Program-made: the position numbers and the translations under genes
From: an uncultured Actinomycetota bacterium
GTDB lineage: Bacteria > Actinomycetota > Actinomycetes > Mycobacteriales > SCTD01
Reading direction: 5' to 3'
Length of the DNA: 64,000 nt
NCBI GenBank assembly: GCA_963806415.1
Contig: CAWDYD010000005.1
Coordinates: forward strand, 1,540,287-1,604,286
The notes under the pieces: generated by a model
The model's database searches: none
What the model saw: only the letters and a program-made list of their open reading frames with translations
Told to the model about the DNA's origin: nothing
Part shown: positions 15,740 to 17,409 of the stretch, one piece after another
Numbering within the stretch: the stretch's first letter is position 1
How the letters are laid out: every line of letters begins with the position of its first letter

Positions 15740-17409
15740 CTAGCCGGCAGCGGCGGCGGCCGGCTCCCGCGAGCTGCCGAGCACGAACCCGTCGTAGCCG
15801 TCCGCGACGACGCGCTCGAGGATCCGCCGGTAGCCGCGGACCCCGCCGACGTACGGCATGAAGACCCGCGGCTTGCCGGGCACCTCGTCGCCGTTGTAGT
15901 AGGAGGTCGCCAGCGGATAGAGCGTCTCCTGCGCGCGCTCGTTGACGTGCGCCACCCAGCCGCCGCTCGGCCTCGGGGGTCACCTCGACGCGGTCGGCGC
16001 CCTCGGCGGCGACGTGCGCCAGCAGCGCCGGCGATCCAGTCGACGTGCTGCTCGGTGGAGAGCAGCACGTTGCTCAGCAGCGACGGGCTGCCGGGGCCGG
16101 CGATGATGAACAGGTTCGGGAAGTCCGAGACCATCAGGCCCAGGTAGGTGACCGGGCCGGCCGACCACTTCTCGCTTGAGCGTGACGCCGCCGCGGCCGA
16201 CGATCTCCGGCCGTAGCAGCGACCCGGTGAGGGCGTCGAAGCCGGTCGCGAACACGATCATGTCGAGCTCGTAGTGCGCCTCGCGGGTCCGGATGCCGGT
16301 CTCGGTGATCTCCGGCGATCGGGTCGCTGCGGATGTCGGCGAGCGTGACGTTGTCGCGGTTGAAGGTCTCGAAGTAGCCGCTGTCGACCGACGGGCGCTT
16401 GGCGGCGAACGGGAAGTCCCGGGGCAGGAGCTTCTCGCGGACGCTCCGGGTCCTGCACCAGCTCGGCGATCTTGCCGCGGATGAAGTCCGCGGCGGTGTC
16501 GTTGGCCTTCTGGTCGACGCAGGATGTCGTAGTAGGCCAGCGCGAAGCCGAAGCCGAGCCGGGTCCAGGCGCGCTCGTAGTGCGCCTGGCGCTCCTCCGG
16601 CGTCGACCTCGAGGGCCGACTGCTTGTTGGGCGGGAAGCCCAGCCCGCTCGGCGAGTTGCGGGCCGCCTCGCGGCGCTCCCGGTAGCCCGCCTTGACCTC
16701 GGCGTCGTCCTCGTCGGTGATCGGCGCGTTGGTGGCCGGGACGCTGAAGTTCGGCGTGCGCTGGAAGACGGTCAGGTGGGCGGCCTGCTCGGCGACGATC
16801 GGGATCATCTGCATGCCCGGACGAGCCGGTGCCGATGATGCCGACCCGCTTGACCGGTGAAGTCCACGCTCTCGTGCGGCCACCGCGCCGTGTGGTGGAG
16901 CACGCCGGTGAAGCGCTCCTGCCCGGCCAGCTCCGGGGTCTTGGTCGTCGACAGCTGTCCGGTCGCCAGAACGACGATAGCGCGCGCTCCAGCGGTCGCC
17001 CGCCTCGGTCTCGACCGTCCACCGCGAGGCCGTCTCGTCCCAGGTCGAGCGGGTCATCCGCTGGTGCAGGTGCACGTCGCGGCGCAGGTCGAAGCGGTCG
17101 GCCACGTGATGGATGTAGCGCAGGATCTCCGGCTGGGTCGCGTACCGCTCGCTCCAGCGCCACTCCTGCTCGAGCTCGGGGGAGAAGCGAGTAGGAGTAG
17201 TCGTAGCTCTCCACGTCGCAGCGCGCGCCGGGGTAGCGGTTCCAGTACCACACCCCACCGACGTCGCCGCCGGCCTCCAGCACGGCCACCGACATCCCGG
17301 CTGAGCGCAGCGTGTGCAACGTCCGCAGACCGGCGAAGCCGGCCCCCACGACGACCACATCGACGACGGACGGCGCGTCGGGCACCTGGTTCGGGTCCGG
17401 CTGGGTCAC
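15740..17409 (-). pseudogene. Baeyer-Villiger (flavin, type I) monooxygenase, at least 11 frameshifts
   Basis: It can be read only by hopping across all three frames. FAD site [15 protein letters not shown] fingerprint [17 protein letters not shown] site [12 protein letters not shown]. Further conserved stretches: [54 protein letters not shown], ending [20 protein letters not shown] before stop 15740. Confidence 0.85.

Follow-up and report, generated by a model that had tools for sequence, protein, structure and literature searches.

Clustered single-base frameshifts in a Baeyer-Villiger monooxygenase gene and other actinomycete genes are probably errors of the sequence

Recognisable genes interrupted by frameshifts have been described in three settings that bear on the case reported here. 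(i) Pseudogenes of decaying genomes, such as that of Mycobacterium leprae, can carry many frameshifts in a single recognisable gene, and a sizeable fraction of the genes is broken, which is also seen in the DNA analysed here; such pseudogenes, however, also contain stop codons, substitutions, deletions of varied length and a lost codon bias, none of which was found in the Baeyer-Villiger monooxygenase (BVMO) gene under study. (ii) Programmed frameshifting and rescue by transcriptional slippage likewise combine an interrupted DNA frame with a protein that appears to be under selection, but the known cases rely on one site, or on poly(A) or slippery motifs, and are conserved in relatives, whereas the BVMO gene has 11 unrelated, unconserved and motif-free sites. 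(iii) Errors in PacBio CLR or Nanopore long-read assemblies, the target of the tools Kastor and Homopolish (PMC12007338, PMC8011154), likewise split intact genes by single-base indels; gene-fragmenting indel errors are documented in such assemblies, and residual consensus errors are usually associated with homopolymers (PMC12007338). The resemblance to this third group extends to the large number of unrelated genes hit, the absence of substitution decay and the way in which comparison with orthologues reveals the breaks, while the errors described here differ in being mostly insertions, several of them outside homopolymers, and in falling into patches of about 1.1 to 1.5 kb that recur with a period of about 15.6 kb, a distribution that is not known to have been described for errors of that type.

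The gene lies in a stretch of 64,000 nucleotides of actinomycete DNA, referred to below as the window, and is described as follows:

15740 to 17409, minus strand: type I Baeyer-Villiger monooxygenase gene, similar to phenylacetone monooxygenase (PAMO) and steroid monooxygenase (STMO); 552 codons after removal of 11 extra bases

An earlier note, made from the sequence alone, had claimed that this enzyme can be read on the minus strand only by changing frame, and its claim was borne out by three approaches, each of which gave 11 frameshifts: (i) in a plot of the GC content at third codon positions (GC3), the minus-strand third-codon-position phase steps from 0 to 1 to 2 and back to 0 between 17409 and 15740, with eleven shifts that all go in one direction (binomial p = 0.001 for 11 of 11), and the three-frame translation of the same interval yields twelve successive pieces of one protein; (ii) frameshift-aware protein-to-DNA alignment against three intact orthologues, namely L001 from a Frankiales metagenome-assembled genome (84% amino acid identity), L004 (77%) and L002 from Protofrankia coriariae (77%), returned 11 events with each reference in the conserved gene body, every one of them a single extra nucleotide, and showed neither in-frame stops nor lost residues in the BVMO gene; and (iii) a MAFFT DNA alignment with seven orthologues contained 11 single columns occupied by the window only, at 17188, 16978, 16853, 16822, 16598, 16518, 16442, 16315, 16178, 16026 and 15964, so that none of the seven orthologous loci has any of the insertions. 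A step of two extra nucleotides at 15777, in the divergent C-terminal tail of the alignment with L001, was discarded as an alignment artefact, being absent with L004, with L002 and from the DNA alignment. The switch points that had been proposed (17188, 16988, 16857, 16822, 16603, 16520, 16440, 16315, 16188, 16030 and 15962) all lie within 10 nt of the alignment columns, and the proposed number of breaks, at least 11, becomes exactly 11 in the frameshift-aware alignment that the earlier note had itself suggested as a check. Removal of the 11 bases leaves a 1659-nt open reading frame with a single terminal stop, in keeping with the claim that the correct frames contain no stop codon. The homologues checked among those listed are full length, at about 500 to 620 amino acids, and the chance of finding at least 11 events in 1.67 kb at the background rate of the window is P = 1.6e-11.

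The position of each extra base relative to homopolymers was assessed by deleting in turn every base within 7 nt of each site and comparing the local peptide with the orthologues, with the following results (presumed extra base in brackets):

17187 to 17188, minus strand: extra base 1, TACTC[G]CTTC; an invariant Phe is retained only if G17188 or C17187 is taken out; not a homopolymer
16975 to 16980, minus strand: extra base 2, CGCT[A]TCGTC; no compatible reading is a homopolymer
16849 to 16853, minus strand: extra base 3, CCGG[T]CAAG; two readings, T/C (outside any homopolymer) or one A of AA
16815 to 16822, minus strand: extra base 4, within the codons for GTGSSG; length of a CC or GGG run probable
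16597 to 16605, minus strand: extra base 5, GACGCC[G]GAGGAG; ambiguous
16516 to 16520, minus strand: extra base 6, CTGC[G]TCGAC; outside any homopolymer
16439 to 16447, minus strand: extra base 7, GGAGC[G]TCCGC; ambiguous
16312 to 16316, minus strand: extra base 8, GATCG[C]CGGAG; ambiguous
16173 to 16178, minus strand: extra base 9, CTCAAG[C]GAGAAG, which best matches the K/R-E/Q-K-W of the orthologues
16026 to 16031, minus strand: extra base 10, GCCGGC[G]CTGCTG; ambiguous
15959 to 15964, minus strand: extra base 11, GAGCG[G]CGGCTGG; length of a GG run probable

The suggestion that the switches sit in short G/C runs was thus upheld in part: it probably applies to two of the 11 sites (16822 and 15964), it does not apply to three that are certainly outside homopolymers (17188, 16978 and 16518), and the other six are ambiguous.

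Without the extra bases, residues 13 to 540 of the protein align gap-free with STMO (PDB 4aos and 4ap3, E about 1e-201; 2e-201 for 4aos) and with PAMO (1w4x, E 3.5e-199), and PDB entries for phenylacetone and steroid monooxygenases match the N-terminal piece. The family motifs listed in the earlier note were all found in the translations: the FAD-binding Rossmann motif GxGxxG lies in segment 1 and aligns with the same motif of STMO, the BVMO fingerprint FxGxxxHxxxW[P/D] is present as FxGxxxHxxxWP, and the second, NADPH-binding Rossmann motif is present as GIIGTGSSG, its DNA being interrupted by extra base 4. The stretches 'pgarcdves' and 'akr' are conserved in the alignment with 4ap3/4aos and 1w4x, and we take their 'ARCD' Asp and 'KR' Arg to be the active-site residues D66 and R337 of PAMO. 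The gene encodes an ordinary PAMO/STMO-like BVMO, predicted with high confidence to be functional. An identity as pentalenolactone D synthase was considered and rejected, the score against the NCBIfam PtlE equivalog being 306 against a cut-off of 1100. In a search of 5.8 billion proteins the best match to the BVMO had 83 to 84% identity. Megablast against plasmids returned distant BVMOs only and no near-identical sequence, an exact-pattern scan of metagenome contigs with the first insertion either present or absent gave no match, a single scan of genome contigs yielded nothing beyond orthologues, and exact-protein look-ups of the neighbouring short-chain dehydrogenase/reductase (SDR) and S8 protease found no identical entry.

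The corrected gene is without sign of relaxed constraint. Its GC3 is 0.978 (97.8%), within the range of 0.963 to 0.988 of four intact genes in the window (S8 protease 0.975, SDR 0.988 and two others 0.978 and 0.963), and its dN/dS is 0.25 against L001, 0.38 against L004 and 0.31 against L002, compared with 0.38 for the control pair of intact genes, L001 against L004. An old pseudogene would be expected to show in-frame stops, a relaxed dN/dS and a lost codon-position bias, together with an indel spectrum of mixed lengths in which deletions equal or exceed insertions; the BVMO gene shows none of the former, and all 11 of its events are +1 insertions. A very recent pseudogene is a different matter, since the insertions here and in other genes could have come from a process prone to indels, for example error-prone patch synthesis or a mutator state that was transient, with the substitutions yet to follow, and the insertions are, after all, present in the sequence as given. 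In mutation-accumulation work, on the other hand, substitutions normally exceed indels roughly ten-fold, so that a gene that was neutral after its first break and then gathered 11 indels would be expected to have gathered about a hundred substitutions, some of them stops, with a drop in GC3. The GC3 of 0.978, the absence of stops and a dN/dS equal to that of intact orthologues speak against this, as does the fact that every break in the BVMO gene is an insertion and none is longer than 1 nt, the opposite of the deletion bias of natural bacterial indel spectra.

The perfect preservation of the protein over all 12 segments would also be the outcome if selection acted on a recoded gene, the extra bases being real but bypassed through programmed +1 ribosomal frameshifting or hopping, or through deletion of nucleotides from the RNA (editing), so that the enzyme is still made. 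It is, however, equally explained by insertions that do not exist in the cell. Recoding is further opposed by the sites themselves, as no slippery or stimulatory motif is shared across the 11, whose contexts differ, and the orthologues lack insertions at all of them; we know of no such recoding system in bacteria, and we regard this explanation as extremely unlikely.

The G+C content of the window is 74.4%, owing to which nearly every third codon position is G or C and composition by itself suffices to show the reading frame. A seven-state hidden Markov model (HMM) on codon-position GC was run over the whole window, flagging frame switches on the same strand. It recovered 10 of the 11 BVMO sites within 6 nt, whereas the remaining one (about 16818 to 16822) appeared only as a boundary of a 40-nt plus-strand segment that is spurious. 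Frameshifts were told from gene junctions by the positions of stop codons, by stitched translations and by Pfam matches; a simpler rule, by which a stop within about 50 nt of a frame switch denotes a gene junction, was dropped after it had mislabelled the frameshifts of the MoxR gene (1590) and the PAS gene (31319). Taken together, the HMM, the Pfam matches and the reading of frames put the total at 33 frameshifts or more, 26 of insertion type and 7 of deletion type. They affect 13 of some 60 genes, and at least 22 of them lie in 12 unrelated genes beyond the BVMO gene:

About 530, minus strand: vWA/CoxE-like gene, insertion-type; the VWA_CoxE match spans the junction; found by HMM
About 1590, minus strand: MoxR AAA ATPase gene, insertion-type; found by HMM and read by eye
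4661 to 4803, plus strand: MFS transporter gene, compensating pair of frameshifts 142 nt apart
14241, plus strand: DedA/VTT-domain gene, insertion-type; the VTT_dom match (1-122 of 123) spans the junction
18268 to 18273, plus strand: frameshift in the acyl-CoA synthetase gene (17492 to 19272); the AMP-binding match (37-428) spans the junction
28221, minus strand: molybdopterin oxidoreductase gene, insertion-type; the Molybdopterin match (72-480) spans the junction
31319 to 32777, plus strand: PAS-GAF-SpoIIE phosphatase gene, six frameshifts (31319 deletion-type, 31575 insertion, 31733 deletion-type, 31954 insertion, 32617 insertion, 32777 insertion)
40425, minus strand: IS3-family transposase gene, frameshift within the rve (DDE) domain
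46954 (insertion), about 47430 (deletion) and about 47465 (deletion), plus strand: PxpB/C; the CT_A_B match spans 46954, and the last two lie in the PxpC C-terminus
About 47510 (deletion), 47682 (insertion) and 48002 (insertion), plus strand: PxpA; LamB_YcsF (1-239 of 239) runs across the three junctions
48337 (insertion), minus strand: CrcB; the CRCB match spans the junction
63165, plus strand: histidine kinase gene; HisKA and HATPase_c lie in different frames

Uninterrupted Pfam matches cross the stitched junctions of the vWA, DedA, AMP-binding, molybdopterin, GAF/SpoIIE, rve, CT_A_B, LamB_YcsF and CRCB proteins, while the breaks in the MoxR, MFS, PAS and histidine kinase genes rest on the reading of frames. 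In the phosphatase, single-stretch GAF_2 and SpoIIE matches bridge the junctions at 31733, 31954, 32617 and 32777, four of the six, and the junctions at 31319 and 31575 are based on the HMM and the reading of frames. One site in the MFS transporter (4661) lies within a (GC)n run and the other, at about 4800, has an A inserted, GTG[A]GCC. The shift in the acyl-CoA synthetase gene is best read not as a deletion but as two 1-nt insertions around a conserved TTC, GGC[G]TTC[G]CAG. The same insertion-only reading, in which each deletion-type shift stands for two insertions, was rejected for PxpC and PxpA, since 1-nt losses in G runs suit the family consensus (IDLN-x-DLGEG) better; several of the deletion-type events outside the BVMO gene are compatible with G runs that have become one G shorter.

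The problem is accordingly not local to the BVMO gene, as the earlier note had supposed, since 12 other genes of the window are also broken. The adjacent S8 protease gene (14421 to 15626) is unbroken, as claimed; the surroundings that had been taken as intact nevertheless include two further frameshifted genes, those for the acyl-CoA synthetase (about 18270) and DedA (about 14241). The spread of the same breaks over unrelated genes on both strands, an IS element among them, and in patches defined by position, also tells against the recoding described above.

About 27 of the 33 events lie in five patches, those with several events being 1.1 to 1.5 kb wide, and the long intervals between them hold genes with clean terminal stops:

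530 to 1590, minus strand: patch Z0, two events (vWA/CoxE-like and MoxR genes)
15964 to 17188, minus strand: patch Z1, 11 events (BVMO gene)
31319 to 32777, plus strand: patch Z2, six events (one PAS-GAF-SpoIIE phosphatase gene)
46954 to 48337, both strands: patch Z3, seven events (PxpB/C and PxpA on the plus strand, CrcB on the minus strand)
63165, plus strand: patch Z4, at least one event (histidine kinase gene)

The six events outside the patches are those at 4661, 4803, 14241, about 18270, 28221 and 40425. The right edges of the first four patches (1590, 17188, 32777 and 48337) follow one another at distances of 15598, 15589 and 15560 nt, the patch centres at about 15.5 kb, and a Rayleigh scan peaks near 15.3 kb. 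In a Monte Carlo simulation, three spacings this equal arise from four random points with a probability of about 3e-6, a post hoc statistic for which the right edges were chosen and the six isolated events excluded, and in which Z0 and Z4 are thin, with two events and one event, respectively. The period of about 15.6 kb is thus a strong lead and not a proven feature. No internal repeats were found at the patches within the window, and their GC content is nothing special; homopolymer compression of the coordinates does not turn the period into a round number, nor is it 16,000 or 16,384, and we know of no assembler or polisher with a step of about 15.6 kb.

The distribution of the events also bears on a recent origin of the BVMO breaks by mutation. 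Two findings would suit a genuine pseudogene: breaks affect roughly one in five genes of the window, a share like that in decaying genomes, and the IS3 transposase and an integrase nearby indicate some mobile-element activity. The clusters, however, respect neither gene nor strand boundaries and recur at even distances, and to our knowledge no mutational process produces clusters of this kind. With the constraint on the gene taken into account, we consider a real and very recent pseudogene improbable. We give hardly any credence either to a new bacterial mechanism of recoding or of nucleotide deletion from RNA by which the cell would skip extra bases at many non-homopolymeric sites and still make the enzyme, or to a localised insertion hypermutation that marks patches of about 1.1 to 1.5 kb every 15.6 kb or so.

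The earlier note had left the choice between a part of the assembly that is unpolished or of low coverage and a very recent inactivation by indels only. The former is favoured and the latter disfavoured on the grounds that 12 other genes are broken, that the events cluster by position every 15.6 kb or so, and that the corrected BVMO gene is without relaxed constraint. The 11 extra bases are in all likelihood consensus errors of an error-prone and insufficiently polished assembly, a technical cause to which we are led by breaks that are independent of gene and strand, biased towards insertions, periodic and free of substitution decay. The events track position and not gene or strand, as is clearest in patch Z3 with its three genes on both strands; the errors would then not be specific to the BVMO gene, which would merely happen to fill one patch. 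The insertion-dominated and partly homopolymer-linked spectrum suggests an assembly of single-molecule long reads at low effective depth. An association of indel errors with homopolymers is typical of Nanopore, HiFi, 454 and Ion Torrent data, and the excess of insertions outside homopolymers may fit a low-depth single-molecule consensus better than it fits the homopolymer errors of Nanopore or HiFi. More speculatively, the sequence could have been produced in chunks or tiles of about 15.6 kb with some 1.1 to 1.5 kb of poorly supported ends or overlaps.

The even spacing can also be explained by errors introduced after assembly, whether through data handling, the merging of overlapping pieces or a deliberate or simulated corruption at regular intervals. 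The spacings of 15598, 15589 and 15560 nt are more regular than a random tiling of reads would give, the patches are of similar width (1.1 to 1.5 kb) and the events are mostly single-base insertions at arbitrary positions, all of which would agree with such a source. The six events outside the patches do not, and the deletion-type events in G runs resemble ordinary sequencing errors, and we hold an origin after assembly to be decidedly improbable. When errors of this kind are counted together with those of the assembly itself, an artefact of one sort or the other is very likely indeed.

Two observations count against an artefact: at least three of the 11 BVMO insertions are not in homopolymers, and no assembly or polishing step known to us accounts for the period.

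Taken at face value, the deposited sequence would describe a monooxygenase gene that is dead and a share of pseudogenes of about a fifth, and would invite speculation on an unusual mutational process, whereas it is probably the sequence that is faulty and the frameshifted genes that are intact. This has consequences for annotation, for pseudogene counts and for enzyme mining. Evenly spaced patches of errors can serve as a signature in quality control, one that would predict further false frameshifts in the source contig, and their even spacing may point to a chunk-wise or tile-wise step in the production of the sequence. For enzyme mining the case matters because the corrected BVMO is a full-length relative of PAMO and STMO in a conserved gene cluster: several orthologous loci have the BVMO gene next to the same acyl-CoA synthetase and SDR genes as here, and there all of them are intact.

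The frameshifts are concentrated in patches 1.1 to 1.5 kb wide that recur about every 15.6 kb across the 64-kb window, with spacings of 15598, 15589, and 15560 nt between the right edges at 1590, 17188, 32777, and 48337; the right edge of the next patch is predicted to lie near 63,920.

530-1590, 15964-17188, 31319-32777, 46954-48337, and 63165: frameshift-dense patches within the window

The break in the acyl-CoA synthetase gene at 18268-18273 looks like two separate 1-nt insertions rather than a deletion, the two lying 3 nt apart and flanking a conserved Phe codon (GGC[G]TTC[G]CAG). 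In the MFS transporter gene, two compensating frameshifts 142 nt apart (4661-4803), the first within a GCGCGCGC run and the second an A inserted between GTG and GCC, both fall outside the periodic patches. A further frameshift may be present close to the 3' end of an HxlR-type regulator gene, whose first in-frame stop is located at 3258, 400 nt inside the convergent TetR gene.

3674-4149, minus strand: HxlR-type regulator gene

The surroundings of the Baeyer-Villiger monooxygenase (BVMO) gene are conserved across Actinomycetota and Proteobacteria (orthologous loci L003, L004, L006, and L020), which suggests that the three enzymes encoded there serve a common pathway for a ketone or acid substrate.

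15740-20021: BVMO gene, divergently transcribed acyl-CoA synthetase gene, and SDR gene

Two further groups of genes were noted.

36578-39068, plus strand: nitrile hydratase cluster, located between error patches
45983-47493, plus strand: PxpB (CT_C_D) and PxpC (CT_A_B), in a single continuous frame

The nitrile hydratase cluster is apparently intact. It encodes the beta subunit and an alpha subunit that carries the CTLCSC metal site, along with two other proteins, one accessory and the other a putative metal transporter. Read in its single frame, the second region yields PxpB and PxpC as a fused protein, and PxpA follows, overlapping the stop of the fusion (GTGA).

An integrated element adjoining a tRNA-Ser(TGA) gene, with an IS3 copy inside it, is suggested by two observations: (i) the integrase open reading frame meets no stop until past the tRNA gene on the opposite strand, and (ii) a 97-nt segment from the 3' part of the integrase gene (42714-42804) recurs at 39534-39630 with 87% identity.

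40125-41297, minus strand: IS3-family transposase (HTH_Tnp_1, HTH_21, rve)
41571-43331, plus strand: tyrosine-recombinase (integrase) gene
42973-43062, minus strand: tRNA-Ser(TGA) gene

Whereas IS3 family members usually have an orfA/orfB -1 frameshift arrangement, this copy lacks it, one continuous frame covering HTH_Tnp_1, HTH_21, and most of rve; a separate frameshift lies at about 40425, within the DDE domain.
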